A stretch of 42,503 nt of DNA from a virus. Lineage: Duplodnaviria > Heunggongvirae > Uroviricota > Caudoviricetes. Location of the stretch: the IMG/VR virus record IMGVR_UViG_3300046047_000272, one strand, 5' to 3'. Made by a program: the position numbers and the translations under genes. The notes under the pieces are model-generated. The model saw nothing but the letters and a program-made list of their open reading frames with translations, was not told where the DNA came from and made no database searches. Below, piece by piece: positions 1-15,519 of this stretch (within the stretch, counting starts at the first letter, position 1; each line of letters starts with the position of its first letter).

Positions 1-146
1 ATCTGGTAAGAGGTACGAGTGGTCTGGCGTGGTGCGTGATGATCTGGTTCAATCCCAGCGTCTACGTGATATGAAGATATTCATATTCGTGGGTATTGGT
101 TAAGCGCGCCACGTATACCGGTTCGATTCCGATACGTACTCCGAAT

Positions 147-229
147 GCCCTTATGGTTGGAATTGGTAGACACGGCCGACTTAAAATCGGCTTCCGTAAG
201 GAATCTCGGTTCGAGTCCGAGTAAGGGCA
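147..229 (+). tRNA. tRNA-Leu(TAA)
   Basis: Acceptor GCCCTTA/TAAGGGC, loop CT-TAA-AA, long variable arm, T-loop TTCGAGT. Confidence 0.93.
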
Positions 230-337
230 CTGAGTTGCTGGCAACCAGCTTTAGTCGAAAGACAGTCTGCCCGGTAACCCTCTCATAATGTTTGTTCTAA
301 AACGAGGAGCAATGACTTTGAGAGGAACCGTTCGTTT

Positions 338-409
338 ACGGGTATAGTTCATCGGTCAGAACACTTCTCTGATACAGAAGAAAGGATAGTTCAATTCTAT
401 CTACCCGTA
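338..409 (+). tRNA. tRNA-Ile(GAT)
   Basis: Acceptor ACGGGTA/TACCCGT, loop CT-GAT-AC. Confidence 0.9.
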
Positions 410-410
410 C

Positions 411-482
411 GCCTTAGTAGCTCAGAGGAAGAGCATCTGTCTCTTAAACAGAGGGTCGAGATATCATAATTCTCCTGAGGCA
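411..482 (+). tRNA. tRNA-Lys(CTT), non-canonical T-loop
   Basis: Acceptor GCCTTAG/CTGAGGC, loop CT-CTT-AA; T arm GAGA-TATCATAAT-TCTC lacks TTCRA. Confidence 0.8.
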
Positions 483-602
483 CGAAACCGATCTGCAGCT
501 CGGTTTTGGACTGGTGTCCGGATCAAAGTGAAGTGAAACTCTTCAAACAGCGGGGTTCGATTCCCCAATGTACGCGAGTATAACGCATTGACCCACCTTT
601 AT

Positions 603-683
603 GGTGCATTCGCATAGCGGCAATTGCGGCTGGCTGTAAACCAGCTCCCACCGGGTTCGAGGGTTCGAGTCCCCCATGCACCA
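603..683 (+). tRNA. tRNA-Tyr(GTA)
   Basis: GGTGCAT/ATGCACC, loop CT-GTA-AA, long variable arm. Confidence 0.92.
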
Positions 684-945
684 CGAGCTGCATGATCTCG
701 CAGCTATACGTTGATGTTACTATATAAGGATTGATTATCCGAGTATGGTTCTCAACAGGGGATCCTTCAACATCGTATCGTGATGGACACCATGATACGA
801 TAGAGTATATAGTTAACCGCTTGATGTGATGTAATCAATGATTACAACATCAAGTTACATAAATCCTGTCCTCAAATGATCGAGAACGATCTCGCCCATG
901 GAGAACCATGATGATGACGAAGCCCTAATCAAGCAACGTCAACAT

Positions 946-1016
946 ACGCCTATGGTGTAGTGGTAACACAAGAGCTTCCAAACCTCTTGACTTGGGTTCG
1001 ATTCCTGGTGGGCGTA
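946..1016 (+). tRNA. tRNA-Trp(CCA)
   Basis: ACGCCTA/TGGGCGT, loop TT-CCA-AA, C31-C39 mismatch. Confidence 0.82.
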
Positions 1017-1037
1017 CTTTGTCAACACTTGTTGACA

Positions 1038-1096
1038 GGAATCTTGGTGTGAACCATGCTGTTAGCATGGTCATGGGTTCGATTCCCATGATTCCA
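1038..1096 (+). ncRNA. D-armless tRNA-Asn(GTT)-like RNA
   Basis: GGAATC/GATTCC, perfect anticodon arm CCATG-CTGTTAG-CATGG, T arm ATGGG-TTCGATT-CCCAT; only ~10 nt where the D arm should be. Confidence 0.65.
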
Positions 1097-1353
1097 CGTG
1101 TGTCATCGTGCAGCCACTAATAGTGGAAATAGCGGACCATGCTTGATAACCATGGGACATCGGGTTCCTCGTCGCACGCTTCAACATCACATCGAATTGG
1201 ATGGAATATCGTATTGATGGAGTAGAAGTCAACTGCCTGTTACTGTGGTTAAGACCATACCTCAGGTTCTATAAACACTATCCTCGCTGACTGAGAACAG
1301 TCTCGTTCATGGAGTATCATGATACAGTCATGGAACTATCATCCATGACTTAT

Positions 1354-1426
1354 GGTCTCATAGAGCAACGGTTACCTCGTCTCCCTCTCAAGGAGAAGAT
1401 TGCGGGTTCGATTCCCGCTGAGACTA
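1354..1426 (+). tRNA. tRNA-Glu(CTC)
   Basis: GGTCTCA/TGAGACT, loop CT-CTC-AA. Confidence 0.92.
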
Positions 1427-1522
1427 CGGAGGTCCTGCGTATCGTCGGCGTAATTACCCGATGATGCAAAGGAACGTTCTCTGGCGCCGTCAGCCTGATC
1501 ACCTGATGGCATCAGGATAAAC

Positions 1523-1594
1523 AACCCATTAGTGACACTGGTTAGAATAGGCCCGTGGGAGGGTCAGAACCGGGTTCAATTCCCGGATGGGGCA
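1523..1594 (+). pseudogene. degenerate tRNA-Pro(TGG)-like
   Basis: T arm CCGGG-TTCAATT-CCCGG; anticodon stem GGCCC/GGGTC with 6-nt loop GTGGGA; mismatched acceptor end. Confidence 0.55.
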
Positions 1595-1653
1595 TTAATC
1601 TTTTTCATAATGGCATTCTAATACGTGATTGCATGTTTCGGAATGTTATGCAT

Positions 1654-1725
1654 GCCTTGATAGCACAATGGCTCGTGCGACTGTTTAGTAAGCAGTTGAT
1701 CTTAGTTCGATTCTAAGTCAAGGCT
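1654..1725 (+). tRNA. tRNA-Thr(AGT), A34
   Basis: GCCTTGA/TCAAGGC, loop TT-AGT-AA, U73. Confidence 0.88.
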
Positions 1726-1929
1726 CGCAACGTGAGTACATATTGATATCACATAGCTCATTCAAATAGTCTAATCAGCGTTTAGTGAGAATGAGTCGGA
1801 TCATCAGGAAGCGCTGATAATGATGGTTATCATCGTTGCACGTTTAATCAGGGGGCGACGAACCCTGCGGTGATGGCATGGGATACTAGATTGAGTGCCA
1901 TCTCAATTCATCTCCGTAAAGGATGATAT

Positions 1930-2002
1930 GGCCGCGTAGTTCAGGGGTAAGAACGCTTGCTTGTCACGCAAGAGGTCACCGGTTCAATTCCGGTCGTGGT
2001 CG
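1930..2002 (+). tRNA. tRNA-Asp(GTC)
   Basis: GGCCGCG/CGTGGTC, loop TT-GTC-AC, G73. Confidence 0.93.
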
Positions 2003-2004
2003 CT

Positions 2005-2089
2005 GTGTACAAGGTCGATATGGTTTGCGACATCAGGTTGTGACCCTGATGGGAGTTATCCCATGCGGGTTCGAGTCCCGTTGTACACC
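2005..2089 (+). tRNA. tRNA-His(GTG) with long variable arm
   Basis: GTGTACA/TGTACAC, loop TT-GTG-AC, C73, variable hairpin TGGGA-GTTA-TCCCA; base at -1 is T, not G. Confidence 0.82.
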
Positions 2090-2091
2090 CC

Positions 2092-2174
2092 GCCCCTATG
2101 GTTGGAATTGGTAGACACGACCGCCTCAAAAGCGGTTTCCGCAAGGAATCTCGGTTCAAGTCCGAGTGGGGGTA
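2092..2174 (+). tRNA. tRNA-Leu(CAA)
   Basis: GCCCCTA/TGGGGGT, loop CT-CAA-AA; paralog of the gene at 147. Confidence 0.93.
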
Positions 2175-2232
2175 CGAGTCATCGAATGAGATGCTCTAGA
2201 ACTGGTTGACCCAATATGATCGATCAGTCTTT

Positions 2233-2306
2233 GCCTTCTTAGCCCAATTGGTAGAGGCGATAGGTTTAGGTCCTATTCAGTGAGAGTTCGAGTCTCTTAG
2301 AAGGTA
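2233..2306 (+). tRNA. tRNA-Leu(TAG), short variable loop
   Basis: GCCTTCT/AGAAGGT, loop TT-TAG-GT, variable region only TCAGT. Confidence 0.88.
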
Positions 2307-2363
2307 CTGGTGTATGGTGTATTCCGTATGCTTACATGTGAATGGTGACAGGATCATGTGTTA

Positions 2364-2512
2364 GGGGTGTTTGATGGTGAATAGCAGAGGTTAACCGTTC
2401 TGCTGGGCATCATATGGTCAATAGTGTTTGAGATTGGTTATCCAAGCCAGAAACGCGGGGTGAGTCCATTAGGACTCACGCTCGAAGCACGGTTCGAATC
2501 CGTGCCGCTCCA
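2364..2512 (+). ncRNA. ~150-nt RNA with an Ala-type tRNA-like end (G3-U70, A73)
   Basis: 5' GGGGTG pairs with 3' CGCTCC-A; T arm GCACGG-TTCGAAT-CCGTGC; internal hairpins GCAGA..TCTGC and GTGAGTCC-ATTA-GGACTCAC. Confidence 0.5.
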
Positions 2513-2691
2513 CGTAAGCGTTGAAACGGTCGTATTCGTGATGTATCTATTCATCATGAAAGGCTCACTAGACGTGATGATTGCTGTAGCCACGGCAGGC
2601 AGTCATCTACAATTACTTGCTGGTGATTAGAGTTCAGGCACCTGTTGGTCTATGACCTTAGAGGGGTGCGCTGGCTCCACCAGCATCATAT

Positions 2692-2763
2692 GGCCACGGA
2701 GCCTGACGGTAAGGCGTCTCCCTGTCGAGGAGAGGACAGCGGGTCCAACTCCCGTCGTGGTCG
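2692..2763 (+). tRNA. tRNA-Asp(GTC), second copy
   Basis: GGCCACG/CGTGGTC, loop CT-GTC-GA, T-loop TCCAACT (C55). Confidence 0.85.
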
Positions 2764-3115
2764 CGTAGCGTCTGATCTACATCGGTGTCGACTGATAAGG
2801 AAAGGGTGACGAACCCTAATGCGGATGCTGGTGTATCGGAGACGTTCGATACTCTAACGAGATTGCACTCGTTGGGATTCAGTCTGGCTGACCGTGCTGG
2901 ATGCGCGTTGAGGTTCGATTCCTCTTTGAGACTCTAGTCGTGGAACTGGCGGCATGGATGTATACCCATGCTGGGAATCTTGATGACGTCGTTCACCAAG
3001 ATTGAGGAAAGGCCACCTCGTATCACTGTTAGAAAGGCATTGATAGTACACGACATGATGAGATACAGAATCATAATACATCAATATGCTCCTTCTAGAG
3101 CTATTTGAACATAAT

Positions 3116-3199
3116 GGATGGTAGGCTGAGCGGCTAAAGCGCCTCACTGCTAATGAGGTTCGGTTCACACCGTGGCGGGTTCGACCCCCGCACCATCCG
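3116..3199 (+). tRNA. tRNA-Ser(GCT)
   Basis: GGATGGT/ACCATCC, loop CT-GCT-AA, long arm, G73. Confidence 0.93.
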
Positions 3200-3259
3200 C
3201 GTAGGACATGATTAGAAGCAATGAATCATGTTTGCTGGTGTCCTGATAAGGATTCCAGT

Positions 3260-3377
3260 CCTGAATGAGTGACAGGTGGTGGACAATAACTACGTCCTTG
3301 CGGGTTCGAATCTCGCCCAATCTCCGTGGGGATTGGCCGTGCAGCATAGGAGAGCAGTCGCTTCTCACTCACTCAGG
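3260..3377 (+). ncRNA. YrlA-type Y RNA candidate (circularly permuted tRNA mimic)
   Basis: Terminal stem CCTGAATGAGTGA/TCACTCACTCAGG; inside, T arm GCGGG-TTCGAAT-CTCGC, then closed acceptor-like hairpin CCAATCTCC-GT-GGGGATTGG, then D-loop-like GCAGCATAGGAGAGC; Ro60 gene in the same island. Confidence 0.7.
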
Positions 3378-3384
3378 TTTCAAT

Positions 3385-3448
3385 GGTCTCAATTGGTAGT
3401 ATTCCTGATGTTCCATCAAACGACGAGGTTCGATTCCTCGTGAGACTA
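3385..3448 (+). ncRNA. degenerate tRNA-Glu(TTC)-like RNA
   Basis: Same acceptor as the gene at 1354 (GGTCTCA/TGAGACT-A), intact T arm, no D stem, TGATG-TTC-CATCA hairpin. Confidence 0.5.
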
Positions 3449-3585
3449 CGAGGGGTATGGCAACAGTCGCCTCAAGGTCAACCTGGCTCAAGTGGTTATT
3501 AACTTAATCAACTCAGGTTGTTATGCCCGTACAATGTCGTTGCTCGTTCGATGAGAACCTCGTGCTAGCGGGAAAGCCGCCATGT

Positions 3586-3657
3586 GGCCTGTTCTTTCAC
3601 CGGTTAGGAAAGGTGTCTTATAAACACTTAAAGATTGTTCAACTCAATCACAGGCTA
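3586..3657 (+). tRNA. tRNA-Ile(TAT)
   Basis: GGCCTGT/ACAGGCT, loop CT-TAT-AA, A73. Confidence 0.83.
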
Positions 3658-3752
3658 CGATGTCCATAAGTGCCTTCACAAGCTACGTTCTGAGAGATCA
3701 AATGCTCATAAGTAATCATTCCTTGTTCACAGAACATCTTGTGGGCACGTTT

Positions 3753-3836
3753 GCATCCGTGGTGAAATGGTAAACACAATGGCTTCAGAAGCCATCGTCC
3801 ATCATGGACTTGCCTGTTCGAGTCAGGCCGGATGCA
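3753..3836 (+). tRNA. tRNA-Leu(CAG)
   Basis: GCATCCG/CGGATGC, loop TT-CAG-AA, long arm. Confidence 0.93.
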
Positions 3837-3846
3837 CGTTGGAAAT

Positions 3847-3917
3847 GTCTTAATAGCTCAGAGGAAGAGCACTTGGAAAGCAACAAGTACGCGGGATATC
3901 GTCATTCTCTTAAGACA
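3847..3917 (+). ncRNA. paralog of tRNA-Lys(CTT) at 411 with a scrambled 8-nt anticodon loop
   Basis: Perfect acceptor GTCTTAA/TTAAGAC, same D arm AGCTCAGAGGAAGAGCA, T arm GGGATATCGTCATTCTC; loop GAAAGCAA. Confidence 0.65.
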
Positions 3918-4171
3918 CTGGGTAATGAAGCGTAATCACCGTTATGAGTGACATCATGACGATAGGATAAGGTAATCACGCACGTAGTCATCACGCCGAT
4001 AAGAATGACCGTCTATAGGGTGTAGGAGTATCGTACCGAGCGGTAAACCCTGTGATTGTTCACACTCGTTCAATGTGAACAATGATACCATCGTCATATG
4101 GTGTCAGCAGTTGGAATACTGAAGGGAAGCGATGATCGTCGAAGTACAAGACGGAAGAGTTTCCCGTTTAT

Positions 4172-4245
4172 GCCGTCATAGCTCAATTGGCCAGAGCGCA
4201 GAGTTGAAGCCTCTGAGGTTGTCCGTTCGATGCGGACTGTCGGCA
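4172..4245 (+). tRNA. tRNA-Phe(GAA)
   Basis: GCCGTCA/TGTCGGC, loop TT-GAA-GC. Confidence 0.9.
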
Positions 4246-4530
4246 CGATGATTGCACGTTGTAGGCATAAGCTTTTCACTCGTGTAGTGCAGTCTCACTG
4301 ATTATCAGGCCTAACAGTGCGTTGCCCGGCGTTAACGGGTAGGCGGAGCATTCCTATATCAGTATGATCTATTCGACGATTGATAATATAATGTAATTTT
4401 TACATTATTATCATGGCATCATATAAATGATTAGGAATAGTACGAACGATACTAGAATCGCTCATTGTAATGGATGTACGTCTAAGTGACGTTAAACGGA
4501 CTGCATGATGGCTTTGAATCATGCAGTCTA
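4246..4530 (+). ncRNA. unidentified structured RNA, copy 1
   Basis: Homologous to 5063-5308 with compensatory changes in four helices. Confidence 0.65.
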
Positions 4531-4531
4531 T

Positions 4532-4605
4532 GCCGTAATAGCTCAATTGGCAAGAGCGCTGAGCTGAAGCCTCAGAGGTTGTCCGTTCGACCCGGACTGT
4601 CGGCA
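4532..4605 (+). tRNA. tRNA-Phe(GAA), second copy
   Basis: GCCGTAA/TGTCGGC, loop CT-GAA-GC. Confidence 0.88.
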
Positions 4606-4804
4606 CTGGTTGTGAAACCCGGATACGATGCTAGCTATGATGGCAGTGGGGACAAGAAGTAGATCCGGGGACGTGAGCGTCCGTCCGATTTGACGTTCAG
4701 CCGTGGATGATAGCAGTTCCGTAACCAGCGGAAAGTCCTCGATGCATGGTGCCATTCTAACCATGCCAGAAGCCTTCGGTTGACGCATCTAATCAATGCG
4801 GGCT

Positions 4805-4889
4805 GACCTTGCGGATGGATCGCCCCGTTGAATCACATTCGACATATGGGAAGGGCTTCAATAGACGGGTTCGAATCCCGTCTAGGTCA
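4805..4889 (+). ncRNA. tRNA-like RNA with an elongated anticodon-position hairpin
   Basis: GACCTTG/CTAGGTC-A, T arm ACGGG-TTCGAAT-CCCGT, hairpin GTTGAAT-CAC-ATTCGAC. Confidence 0.45.
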
Positions 4890-4977
4890 TGCTGATAGGG
4901 AGATAAGGGGTCTCCTGCCGTGCTCCATCACGGTGTAGGCAAGATCCTGCAGGATCTTGCTGGCATGGCCGATTCAT

Positions 4978-5062
4978 GTCCATATGGCGAAATGAGGTAG
5001 ACGCACCAGTTTAAGGAGCTGGCGGCCATACGACCGTGCAGGTTCGATTCCTGCTGTGGACA
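4978..5062 (+). tRNA. tRNA-Leu(AAG), A34, long arm
   Basis: GTCCATA/TGTGGAC, loop TT-AAG-GA. Confidence 0.9.
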
Positions 5063-5308
5063 CGATGATCACACGTTGTAGGCATAAGCTATTCACTCGT
5101 GTAGTGTGGTCTCATCACCATCAAGTCTCAGTGGTGCGTGGCCAGGCGTCATCTGGTTGGCGGAGCATCTCCAATTGGTATGGATATAACCACACGTTCA
5201 TACGTAAAGGATTGGAGTATCAAGAATTAGTATACTGATTCACCCTATAGAGTAATACGTCTCATGACGGTAAACTGGTTGCATGATGACTTGAATCATG
5301 CAATCTAT
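5063..5308 (+). ncRNA. unidentified structured RNA, copy 2
   Basis: Homologous to 4246-4530 with compensatory changes. Confidence 0.65.
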
Positions 5309-5381
5309 GTGGTCTATAGCTCAACGGTTAGAGCGATGGTCTGTGGCACCATAGATTCGGGTTCGATTCCCGATAGTCCAA
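5309..5381 (+). tRNA. tRNA-His(GTG), second copy
   Basis: Loop CT-GTG-GC; acceptor (G)TGGTCTA/TAGTCCA with a T-T mismatch; A rather than C at 73. Confidence 0.75.
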
Positions 5382-5402
5382 CGTTATCATAGTGATAATT
5401 AT

Positions 5403-5489
5403 GGTTGATTGTCCGAGTGGCTGAAGGAACTTGTCCCGAAAACAAGTATAGGTGACAACCTATCGGGGGTTCGAATCCCTCATCAACCG
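5403..5489 (+). tRNA. tRNA-Ser(CGA), C33
   Basis: GGTTGAT/ATCAACC, CTTGT-CC-CGA-AA-ACAAG, long arm, G73. Confidence 0.87.
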
Positions 5490-5701
5490 CGACGTGCTTC
5501 CAACATGCTTACAACATGTGGAGGGCTGCACAGGCTTGTAAGGCCGTGGTGCGGCGCGACAGTGAAGTGGTAGCTGGCACAGAACGCGAAAGCGAGTAGG
5601 TTCCGTTTGCGGGTGCGTCTCGCGAACAGATGTTCTCATTTTGAGGATATCGCACCCTGGTACGACGGTAGCTAATAGTTATCCGCACCGCTGGGGATCA
5701 T

Positions 5702-5788
5702 GGTTGATTGTCCGAGTGGCCGATGGAGCTTGTCTTGAAAACAAGTATAGGTGCAAGCCTATCGGGGGTTCGAATCCCCCATCAACCG
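5702..5788 (+). tRNA. tRNA-Ser(TGA)
   Basis: Paralog of 5403; loop CT-TGA-AA. Confidence 0.92.
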
Positions 5789-5817
5789 CGATGATCGTGA
5801 TGATGACTATCACGATG

Positions 5818-5892
5818 GCCGTCATAGCTCAATTGGATAGAGCATCTGACTATTAGAATCAGGGGATCGTGGGTTCGAATCCTACAACGGCA
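5818..5892 (+). ncRNA. paralog of tRNA-Arg(ACG) at 8663 with a 9-nt anticodon loop
   Basis: Shares AATTGGATAGAGCATCTGACTA and 3' flank CACTCATG with 8663; loop CTATTAGAA; acceptor 3' strand one base short. Confidence 0.6.
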
Positions 5893-6048
5893 CTCATGTT
5901 TACAAGAGTAAGGCGGGTTATTGATGGCACCGTCATGGCATCAATGACCATGATCACCAGTGACTGGGATTCCAGTGCACATCAGTGGTGACCAGCCTGC
6001 TATGGTATCATGGCAAGGGGATGAGTCAGACGGAAGACTATCCTGTTT

Positions 6049-6135
6049 GGTCGATTGTCCGAGTGGCTGATGGAGCTTGTCTAGAAAACAAGTATAGGTG
6101 CAAGCCTATCGGGGGTTCGAATCCCTCATCGACCG
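6049..6135 (+). tRNA. tRNA-Ser(AGA), A34
   Basis: GGTCGAT/ATCGACC, loop CT-AGA-AA; paralog of 5403 and 5702. Confidence 0.9.
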
Positions 6136-6267
6136 CGTTTGCAATAGGTGTGGTAGGAGGGAAAATGGGTTTGTAGCTCATAGGTTAACCTACCTGTAAA
6201 TCCTATTGTAAGCATGTTCTCATAGGTATCAAGGATGAGGGCATGATCACAGTAATCTTGATACTAT

Positions 6268-6350
6268 TGTGCGTTTGCAGAGTGGTAAATGCGGCTGGCC
6301 GTAACCCAGCTCTTATTGCAAGTACGGGGGTTCGAATCCCTCACGCACAA
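6268..6350 (+). tRNA. tRNA-Tyr(GTA), C33
   Basis: TGTGCGT/ACGCACA, GCTGG-CC-GTA-AC-CCAGC, long arm. Confidence 0.85.
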
Positions 6351-6361
6351 CGATGATTCAT

Positions 6362-6434
6362 GGGGGCGCATGTTCCTGGGCGGCGATTCTCCCTCGCACG
6401 GAGAATGTGATGGGTTCAAATCCCATCGCCTCCA
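6362..6434 (+). tRNA. tRNA-Ala(CGC)
   Basis: GGGGGCG/CGCCTCC with G3-U70, loop CT-CGC-AC; weak D stem. Confidence 0.85.
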
Positions 6435-6448
6435 CCCAGTATCATCAT

Positions 6449-6524
6449 CGTGGGGTAGCTCAAGTCAGGTTAGAGCGCATGATTCATATCCATGAGGTTG
6501 ATGGTTCAAATCCATCCTCCACGA
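6449..6524 (+). tRNA. tRNA with CAT anticodon (Met or Ile2 unresolved)
   Basis: CGTGGGG/CTCCACG, loop TT-CAT-AT. Confidence 0.82.
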
Positions 6525-6653
6525 CGACATGGTCACCAGTTCTCTGGTGCTCATGTGAACAATATTAGCACATCTCTGATAATATGATTATGACGCATTA
6601 TCGTATTGATGTTATATCTTTCATGCATGTTCATATGATTGAGGAGTTATACG

Positions 6654-13513: not shown

Positions 13514-13586
13514 GCCTCTGTAGCTCAGCGGATAGAGCGCTGGTCCTCGGAACCAGGCGTCGCAGGTTCGAATCCTGTTAGAGGCA
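13514..13586 (+). tRNA. tRNA-Arg(TCG), C33
   Basis: GCCTCTG/TAGAGGC, CTGGT-CC-TCG-GA-ACCAG. Confidence 0.87.
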
Positions 13587-13610
13587 CCTTCATGAAGAAC
13601 CATTAGAAGC

Positions 13611-13657
13611 AAATAGGCCCAGATCACTACTAGATGCATGTGATCTGGGCCTATTTT
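13611..13657. terminator. bidirectional intrinsic terminator closing the RNA island
   Basis: AAATAGGCCCAGATCAC/GTGATCTGGGCCTATTTT. Confidence 0.7.
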
Positions 13658-13846
13658 GCGTTGTAGACCCTGAAAAAGGCCATTTATGTATAGTGACATT
13701 AGACGAACCTCTTCTCGTCATTAGAATGCTTCTCATCGAGTTTCCTATATGATCATTATTATGGCATGGTATAATGTCATATTGATAACGTCATGCATCA
13801 TATGCGTGACTGACTGATTATTCCATAATAACGGAGGATAGGAATT

Positions 13847-14332
13847 ATGTCTTTTACCCAGTTGACAATTGACGATCTACTTGATGACGATGATCATCCA
13901 GTGCTCAATATGACACTTGATCCTGGAGCGCAGGAGCCAAGGAGAATGCATGCTGATGATGCTGGAGCTGATTTGATGTCCATCGAGGATGTTACCCTGT
14001 CTGCTGGTGAGCGGAGAATCGTTCATACTGGTGTACATATTGCCTTAGATCCATCAATGTTAGCTTATGTCGTACCTCGTTCAGGACTGGCCGCTAAGCA
14101 TGGTATCACTATTACGAATGCTCCTGGTTTGATTGATACGGGATATCGTGGCGGTCTTGGCGTATGTCTCCAGAATACGAGTTCGGAGGACTTTGAAATT
14201 CATGTTGGTGATAGAATCGCTCAGTTAGTCGTGCAACGATTCTTACCAGTGCGATTCAGGTTGGTCGATGCGTTAGATGAGACTGAGCGCGGGGATGGTA
14301 GTTATGGCTCTACTGGCGTCCAACGTCAGTAA
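13847..14332 (+). CDS. dut: trimeric dUTPase
   Basis: AGADL, PRSGLA, GLIDTGYRG, RIAQLV, RGDGSYGSTG motifs. Confidence 0.95.
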   Translation: MSFTQLTIDDLLDDDDHPVLNMTLDPGAQEPRRMHADDAGADLMSIEDVTLSAGERRIVHTGVHIALDPSMLAYVVPRSGLAAKHGITITNAPGLIDTGYRGGLGVCLQNTSSEDFEIHVGDRIAQLVVQRFLPVRFRLVDALDETERGDGSYGSTGVQRQ

Positions 14333-14347
14333 GGTTAATAGATGTTC

Positions 14348-14383
14348 TAGGAGGGTACGCTACGTAGCGTACCCTCCTATTTT
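14348..14383 (+). terminator. intrinsic terminator
   Basis: TAGGAGGGTACGC/GCGTACCCTCCTA followed by TTTT. Confidence 0.7.
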
Positions 14384-14418
14384 GCGTTCTAATCAGGATC
14401 GCTACGTTTTTGACATGA

Positions 14419-14429
14419 TCTTGATATCT
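14419..14429 (+). promoter_or_regulatory. TCTTGATATCT motif 7 nt before the start codon
   Basis: Recurs at 17568, 23277, 32441 and as a variant at 40935. Confidence 0.55.
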
Positions 14430-14436
14430 GTATTGT

Positions 14437-15519
14437 ATGAAAGATGGTCTTAATTCCTCTAATTATGTGAGCGTCGAATTATTCGAGAGGACGCTTCCAG
14501 CATTCAAAGCCGGATTAGAGGCAAAAGACCGTCTTGACCATGAATACAGTGACTTAGATCGCCTAGAGAGAATTCGATTACGGCAATTAGTCCGTCAAGG
14601 AGAGGCCGCGTACGATGAGGTCTGTACATCGTGTTCATGGATTATTCGACGTGTTGTCAAAACTGAGATGGGCAAACCAAGATCATTCCATGTCATCCTC
14701 GATGCTGAGGATCTTGAGCAAGCTGGATTAGAGGCCGTCTGGAAGATGATGAGGACGGCTGATGTGGAGAAGATGCGTCGATCAGCTGTGAATTATCTCA
14801 TGCAGTGGATTAGCACGAATGTCAGCAGAGCCGCTCTTAAAGAAGAGGCTGAGTTCGGTATGAGCTCTAGCAAAATTAACATGATGAAGAAGATCGCTGC
14901 TGTGCGAGCAAGATTAGCGAAGAAAATTGGGCATTCACCATCGAATGAGGAAGTATATGACTTCCTCCAATCTGGTCACGCTGATATGAAGACGGTCTAT
15001 GGTAGATCTGATAATCATAATCAGAGTAAAGCGAACAAGTTAATCACGATGGACATGATTGAGGAACAATCATCGTTGAATGCTGGAACGCCAATGAAGT
15101 ACGCTGTTACTGATCCATCAAGTATCGATGCGAGTATTGATACTGATCAACTTGGAGACGATTATCAGGAAATCCTTGAGGAACCGACGAAGGCTTTCTG
15201 GCAGGGGTGGATGCAGCGCGTCCATATTCAAGAGCAACAATGGGATAGGCTGGCCGCGTTGACTGGCGTGTACGATGTCGACGCTACGCTCAAAGTCAAG
15301 AAATCTCCGCGTCTTGTTAAAGAATTTTATCTTCTTATCGGTAGTCGTTTAGGAAACATTGATCATTACGCCAGGGAATGGAGTGACCTTCATGGCCCGG
15401 GTCGATGGGATGTTTTCAAGGATGCGCCGTTGAAGGACGATGTGCAACTGGACACGGTTGATGAATCTGGTCGTCCAGTATTCACCATGTTGAAGATCTC
15501 AGGAGGATCAAATCAATGA
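14437..15519 (+). CDS. divergent sigma-70-like factor (regions 2-3)
   Basis: EDLEQAGLEAVWKMMRT..AVNYLMQWISTNVSRA resembles region 2; LAKKIGHSPSNEEV resembles region 3; no obvious region 4. Confidence 0.62.
   Translation: MKDGLNSSNYVSVELFERTLPAFKAGLEAKDRLDHEYSDLDRLERIRLRQLVRQGEAAYDEVCTSCSWIIRRVVKTEMGKPRSFHVILDAEDLEQAGLEAVWKMMRTADVEKMRRSAVNYLMQWISTNVSRAALKEEAEFGMSSSKINMMKKIAAVRARLAKKIGHSPSNEEVYDFLQSGHADMKTVYGRSDNHNQSKANKLITMDMIEEQSSLNAGTPMKYAVTDPSSIDASIDTDQLGDDYQEILEEPTKAFWQGWMQRVHIQEQQWDRLAALTGVYDVDATLKVKKSPRLVKEFYLLIGSRLGNIDHYAREWSDLHGPGRWDVFKDAPLKDDVQLDTVDESGRPVFTMLKISGGSNQ

Follow-up and report, generated by a model that had tools for sequence, protein, structure and literature searches.

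Two diverged copies of a putative structured RNA between tRNA genes in the array of a huge phage

The tRNA gene cluster of phage T4 includes two products that are not tRNAs, 'species 1' and 'species 2' RNA (rnaC and rnaD), both of them stable, structured and about 120-140 nts long. Phages and prophages also encode the large ornate RNAs GOLLD (RF01998) and ROOL (RF03087), frequently in the vicinity of tRNA islands (PMC12286853). Y RNAs are recognised by a size of 80-130 nts, a terminal stem between the 5′ and 3′ ends that has the Ro60 site, a GNCGAAN0-1G or GGUCCGA motif near the 5′ end, and a position at most 4 kb from the Ro60 gene and on the same strand (PMC4201824). The two sequences considered here are spacers between tRNA genes in a large phage array that also has a Ro60 gene.

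The window (the whole stretch of DNA analysed, 42,503 nts) is from an uncultivated huge phage of ~491 kb in sludge, and near-identical DNA is present in bioreactor-sludge and wastewater runs. Its first 13.6 kb (147-13588) is an array of about 45 tRNA genes, all on one strand (+), and the inter-tRNA DNA of this array is largely non-coding. At the array end, and on the same strand, is a Ro60/TROVE gene (10946-12568), downstream of which are genes for a secretion-type ATPase, a TraG/TraD-like coupling protein, gyrase B and A, an NAD-dependent ligase and TelA. To judge from the printed gene ends, CCA is not encoded by the array tRNAs: the called ends are ...C, followed in most cases by G. Position -1 is almost always T (TAT, CAT, TTT), the base that RNase P prefers there. 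Two of the tRNAs, at 5818-5893 and 9401-9475, have the anticodons TTA and CTA, which are of the ochre and amber suppressor types; the genes downstream of them are open under the standard bacterial code. There is also an ORF for a HEAT-repeat protein of about 210-227 aa inside the array (6639-7322), which matched only itself among 5.8 billion clustered proteins.

The spacers concerned are bounded by four tRNA genes called by ARAGORN and Rfam (4172-4246, 4532-4606, 4978-5063 and 5310-5382):

4247-4531, + strand: RNA copy A, 285 nts, the whole spacer between tRNA-Phe(GAA) 4172-4246 and tRNA-Phe(GAA) 4532-4606
5064-5309, + strand: RNA copy B, 245-246 nts, the whole spacer between tRNA-Leu(AAG) 4978-5063 and tRNA-His 5310-5382 (G5309 may be G-1 of this tRNA)

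Aside from a central insert of variable length, the two copies align end to end (MAFFT) with a mean column identity of 79%. Their homology begins at the first base past the upstream tRNA (GATGAT...) and stops at the last bases before the next one (...TCTAT), so that in both cases the borders are at exact tRNA ends despite the flanking tRNAs being unrelated (Phe/Phe versus Leu/His). The 29-mer GTTGTAGGCATAAGCT(T/A)TTCACTCGTGTA occurs exactly twice, against an expectation of 0 in shuffles. An earlier note on this DNA had described two copies that fill gaps between tRNAs and share this 29-mer, GTGCGT(T/G)G and GGCGGAGCAT; the tRNA calls confirm the placement with its coordinates displaced by 1 nt, and the three motifs are found in both copies. 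Read from their sequences, A and B are diverged paralogues of one predicted multi-hairpin RNA. The tRNA-Phe(GAA) genes on either side of copy A are themselves 90% identical, with a compensated pair in the anticodon stem, and on pairing by eye the acceptor stem of each has one or two mismatches.

Helices were derived by inspection, single-sequence folding and RNAalifold, and relative numbers count position 4247 of copy A as 1:

4250-4257 and 4287-4294, + strand: P1 of copy A, arms GATTGCAC and GTGCAGTC (relative 4-11/41-48), closing a 29-nt loop at 4258-4286
5067-5074 and 5104-5111, + strand: P1 of copy B, closing the loop 5075-5103
4296-4319, + strand: P2 of copy A (relative 50-54/69-73), CACTG/CAGTG
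5113-5136, + strand: P2 of copy B, CATCAC/GTGGTG
4321-4351, + strand: P3 of copy A with the junction that follows (P3 relative 75-82/90-98), GTTGCCCG/CGGGTAGGC, which includes CCCG/CGGG
5138-5161, + strand: P3 of copy B
4342-4351 in copy A and 5159-5168 in copy B, + strand: the conserved junction GGCGGAGCAT (as RNA, GGCGGAGCAU)
4350-4438, + strand: P4 of copy A, a long AU-rich variable hairpin with the closing stem ATTCCTA/TAGGAAT
5169-5217, + strand: P4 of copy B, a shorter hairpin with the closing stem CTCCAAT/ATTGGAG
4447-4460, + strand: P5 of copy A, a small hairpin, CGAT/ATCG
5224-5241, + strand: P5 of copy B, GAATTAG/CTGATTC
4477-4497, + strand: the conserved block TACGTCT..TGACG(T/G)TAAAC of copy A, containing P6 (ACGTC/GACGT)
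5256-5275, + strand: the same block of copy B, with P6 at 5258-5261/5266-5269
4500-4527, + strand: P7 of copy A, a 10-bp 3′ hairpin that ends 4 nts before the next tRNA
5278-5304, + strand: P7 of copy B

The fold has at least six or seven helices, with P1 starting 3 nts from the 5′ end and P7 finishing 4 nts from the 3′ end. The four covarying helices of the earlier note correspond to P1, P3, P4 and P7, each of which does pair in both copies and has changes on both sides, and to these P2, P5 and P6 are added here. Between A and B there are two compensated pairs in P1 (U-A to C-G and G-C to A-U), two in P2 together with one wobble change, and one in P7. The closing stem of P4 retains a UCC/GGA core in both copies, and the pairs flanking this core differ yet still pair. 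P2 is the least certain helix, as its strands could instead pair with those of P1 or with the junction GCAU. The four strands of P1 and P2 (4250-4319, 5067-5136) share words and have changed jointly, AUUG/CAGU/ACUG/CAGU in one copy becoming AUCA/UGGU/AUCA/UGGU in the other; an alternative fold is likewise kept in which the 5′ strand of P1 pairs with the 3′ strand of P2 and the 3′ strand of P1 with the 5′ strand of P2. Another option is for GUGC at 71-74 to form a helix with the junction's GCAU, in which one pair is compensated. With several mutually exclusive helices near P2 fitting both sequences equally, the architecture is still provisional.

The 5′ domain (106 nts) aligns without gaps, and all 21 of its pairs form in both copies, six of them with both sides changed. 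Stems contain 13 of its 27 substitutions, with no pair broken and six compensated. In a control where the partners were slid by 1-3 columns, pairing was 28-40% with at most one two-sided change. When 27 substitutions were scattered at random over the 106 columns, a mean of 7.3 pairs was broken. The combination of no broken and six compensated pairs was never reproduced in 200,000 such trials (P<5e-6), a value that applies to helices derived from the same two sequences.

A third sequence comes from a comparison of the Logan contigs of four runs with 3600-5500. One contig of 212 nts, from another bioreactor-sludge study and with a depth of 2.9, is a variant covering 5186-5398, and so includes the 3′ half of copy B. 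It has 16 differences inside the RNA (13% diverged) and none in tRNA-His (5310-5382), the 17th being downstream at 5392. P7 has two double compensations (T5280C with A5302G, G5281A with C5301T) and two further changes that are compatible with pairing (A5298G, taking U-A to U-G, and T5304C, taking G-U to G-C). P5 of the variant is GAATGG/CCATTC: T5228G is compensated by G5237C, and A5229G, combined with loss of base 5236, gives back a perfect stem of 6 bp. In P6, G5270T restores the fifth pair that is present in copy A. All the other differences are in loops or linkers, and P5, P6 and P7 are each retained. Random placement of the variant's 15 substitutions gives no broken and at least three compensated pairs at a frequency of ~5e-6; as the helices had been defined without the variant, the test is an independent one. 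The pattern of the differences cannot be due to sequencing error. The contig is either from a strain variant or from a third paralogue outside the window, and either way it is a third homologue.

G-U pairs are retained in P1, P3 and P7, and therefore the strand under selection is the RNA of the + strand. The loop closed by P1 has one change in its 29 nts against 26 in the remaining 77 columns of the 5′ domain, while the P1 stem has four changes in 16 nts. The block UACGUCU..UGACGKUAAAC is identical in A, B and the variant. As judged from this comparison, stems drift by compensation while certain unpaired blocks stay fixed, and the predicted RNA structure is under selection. In part the conservation of the loops could reflect a short divergence time, the three sequences all being of one phage lineage.

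Relatives of the RNA were sought widely. The earlier note had found no family to which it could be matched, and Rfam agrees: neither copy is matched by any family, GOLLD, ROOL and YrlA included, even at E = 0.1 (searches at the gathering score, at E<=5 over 1-14000, and at E<=10 for each copy with the laxest filters). A covariance model had also been proposed there; the covariation is significant in the simulations above, and models of the 106-nt 5′ domain (R1) and of a 56-nt 3′ module (R2) recover just copies A and B. With blastn, 4100-5400 had no match in phage and plasmid collections. A 16-mer of the invariant loop gave 16 matches in IMG/VR, all of them by chance and in unrelated contexts, the 3′ block gave one chance match there, in a coding region, and a P3-junction pattern gave none. 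In JGI metagenomes a 22-mer pattern had 0 matches and the 3′ block had 26, none of which is followed by P7 or matches R1. A pattern scan of GTDB genome contigs had 0 matches, and a string search of the literature for the conserved sequences had one, which is irrelevant.

Related loci were sought in IMG/VR with the Ro60 and HEAT proteins, and none was found. Other huge phages, known from metagenomes, oral ones among them, carry homologues of the Ro60 (about 50-56% identical) within tRNA arrays in which long spacers are again present, and Ro60 is often beside a gene for a CCA-adding enzyme (PF01743; the two adjoin within the arrays of the related huge phages L020, L026, L027 and L028). In another relative (L022) Ro60 is flanked by two Cas12f/TnpB-like genes (7183-8730 and 13213-14760). 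With 10-kb flanks, the Ro60 loci of these relatives (L017-L029) have no copy of the RNA detectable by R1, R2 or tRNA-masked blastn, nor, for L017-L024, by nhmmer. Within the searches made, the RNA is confined to one phage lineage. It is an uncatalogued new family of a known general kind, that of structured RNAs embedded in phage tRNA clusters.

Two other sequences were considered in this connection. The stretch 3955-4032 may be a decayed third copy but is not significant: it scores 10.8 bits with R1 (E about 0.09-1) and its local alignment scores are not above those of shuffles; in it AUGAC/GUCAU closes a loop resembling the invariant 29-mer (UAGGAUAAGGUAAUCACGCACGUAGU), after which come GUAGGAGUAU and CGGUAAAC. 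A contig of the X4 run seemingly joins a tRNA-Leu-like end to tRNA-Phe without the RNA, with only 28 nts on one side; it may be from another organism.

Folding is widespread in the array. Among its 28 spacers of at least 87 nts (231-10767), 27 fold better than dinucleotide shuffles, and many spacers start and finish with hairpins that abut the tRNAs. The folding z of copy A is -3.1, and that of copy B -1.2 to -1.6. The strongest spacers are 685-945 (z = -6.2), 7771-7911 (z = -5.9), 2308-2691 (z = -5.1) and 10566-10767 (z = -4.5), and the whole array resembles an operon of folded RNAs. Since structured spacers are the rule here, copies A and B are the less exceptional for being structured; they stand out because duplication makes selection visible in them and their loops are sequence-constrained.

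The explanation we favour, to which we give about an even chance, is that the copies are two paralogues of a non-coding RNA gene specific to this lineage, on the + strand of a huge-phage tRNA array; the product would be a stable RNA, freed by tRNA processing and acting in trans. A cis role is its most serious competitor, and is possible if on balance doubtful: a folded spacer would aid the folding or processing of the neighbouring tRNAs, have been copied once in the shuffling of the array, and be degraded afterwards with no function in trans. The negative folding z of 27 of the 28 spacers, the frequency of terminal hairpins beside tRNAs and the failure of the searches made to find a homologue outside the lineage are all as expected for such a spacer. 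An insulator, however, needs stems and not a particular sequence, yet the 29-nt loop of P1 is almost invariant while the stem that closes it changes, and further unpaired blocks likewise do not vary among A, B and the variant. Nor does such a spacer account readily for homology that ends exactly at the tRNA borders though the flanking tRNAs differ. At the other extreme is the reading that there is no RNA function at all, the constraint being that of a small-protein gene starting with the ATG at base 2, or of a DNA site (promoter, recombination) in the 29-mer. That ATG does open a frame in both copies, in which the only difference between the two 29-mers (CTT to CTA) is silent, but the frame is 17 codons in copy A versus 65 in copy B (as read by eye), there is no Shine-Dalgarno sequence before the ATG, and the substitutions are without 3-base periodicity. 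The promoter scan does not flag the 29-mer block, and the compensatory changes and kept G-U pairs point to selection on the RNA strand, all of which leaves this reading with hardly any credit. Neither copy is itself tRNA-like, there being no ARAGORN or RF00005 call within 4247-4531 or 5064-5309.

Among particular functions of the RNA, one reading is that of a Y RNA, with the copies serving as partner of the phage Ro60 protein (10946-12568) and tethering or gating it as the bacterial YrlA and Yrn RNAs do. In its favour, the array ends with a Ro60/TROVE gene of the same strand, and in related huge phages too Ro60 is found within tRNA arrays. The copies themselves fit poorly: they are 285 and 245-246 nts and not 80-130; their ends form their own hairpins, P1 and P7, instead of a conserved 5′/3′ terminal stem (the terminal 30-mers give at best an irregular duplex, not the same one in A and B); neither has the GNCGAAN0-1G or GGUCCGA motif; and RF02553 is unmatched over either at E<=10. 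Though on the same strand, they end 6.4 kb (A) and 5.6 kb (B) upstream of the Ro60 start at 10946, and a Y RNA identity is accordingly improbable. The spacer just upstream of Ro60 (10566-10767), which has a GTCGAATG motif (GNCGAANG) at 10717, is on its sequence the better Y RNA candidate; 10668-10732 within it is the only spacer stretch similar to the array of a relative (L028:9721-9787, 72% over 68 nts). Still less probable is a catalytic RNA, self-cleaving or other, or a switch between two conformations. There are indeed many conserved unpaired nucleotides between the covarying helices, and the concerted changes in the strands of P1 and P2 keep both the 1:2+3:4 and the 1:4+2:3 pairings. Against this, the ribozyme and riboswitch models of Rfam fail to match, whichever threshold is used (the hammerhead, twister, twister-sister, pistol, hatchet, HDV-like and glmS models have no match in either copy), and the helices that are supported make a row of hairpins rather than a compact junction. 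Both ends are already explained by tRNA processing without self-cleavage, and a switch would depend on alternative pairings of just 4-5 bp, which in a sample of two sequences may be coincidental. A wider proposal is that with this RNA a new class begins, of structured RNAs of middle size derived from huge-phage tRNA processing, and that it works via its invariant loops (for instance as specific partner of the phage's RNA-repair or RNA-surveillance proteins, such as Ro60, the CCA-adding enzyme or ligases, or as a switch or catalytic RNA), with diverged relatives unrecognised in other phage arrays; this we consider unlikely.

On the favoured explanation, an RNA released by tRNA processing, the copies would be transcribed as part of a polycistronic tRNA precursor; a promoter/terminator scan has no promoter-like or terminator-like site that stands out as their own. 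They would then be excised passively by the enzymes that mature the flanking tRNAs, the 5′ end being generated by tRNA 3′-end processing just past the upstream tRNA and the 3′ end (...CUAU) by RNase P acting at the downstream one. Such processing is the natural route of release because the borders coincide exactly with tRNA ends. The terminal hairpins P1 and P7 may shield the released RNA from exonucleases, and the fixed blocks (the 29-nt loop of P1, GGCGGAGCAU and UACGUCU..UGACGKUAAAC) may be contact surfaces; the RNA would then be a trans-acting folded scaffold or decoy, with a protein or another RNA as its partner. Within the window, complementarity to the conserved loops is limited to 9-mers at chance level. 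No run recorded as RNA contains this stretch of DNA. Two runs labelled 'RNA-Seq cDNA', flagged as probably DNA, each have one short contig within a spacer (4259-4483 and 4626-4796), which are not counted as expression. The earlier note had spoken of a possibly new ncRNA or ribozyme class released by processing of the flanking tRNAs. A structured + strand RNA with its borders at tRNA ends is the part of this that is supported; nothing points to a ribozyme, no model matching and no conserved multi-helix catalytic core being resolved, and 'class' is too strong a word for two paralogues and one variant from a single lineage.

Very large tRNA arrays are a feature of huge phages. What the locus offers is clean and internally replicated evidence that at least one spacer of such an array is a selected RNA structure with sequence-constrained loops and not filler. 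If spacers are stable RNAs, then phage tRNA arrays would also be operons for hidden non-coding RNAs that are delivered by the tRNA-processing enzymes of the host. The narrow distribution limits the present importance of the RNA, but with its ends, helices and conserved loops defined it is a concrete and testable example.

Among described RNAs, it is like the candidate phage and virus RNAs of PMC10690425 in being a covariation-supported intergenic motif in a phage, a likeness that is by description as those motifs are not in Rfam. With Y RNAs (YrlA, RF02553), which are also present in phages (PMC4201824), it has in common that a non-coding RNA is linked to a Ro60 gene and to tRNA-related loci. 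Like GOLLD and ROOL it is phage-encoded and inside a tRNA array. Those RNAs, however, are 500-800+ nts with elaborate multi-pseudoknot folds and a wide distribution, and the RNA described here is 245-285 nts, lineage-restricted and unmatched by their models at E<=10. Species 1 and 2 of T4 have no sequence relation to it; it is twice as long, is present as two paralogues in an array of about 45 tRNAs, and its processing is putative. The resemblance to them is in the arrangement: a predicted structured RNA that lies between phage tRNA genes and shares their strand, has no promoter or terminator to itself, and is presumably co-transcribed with the tRNAs and released by their processing.
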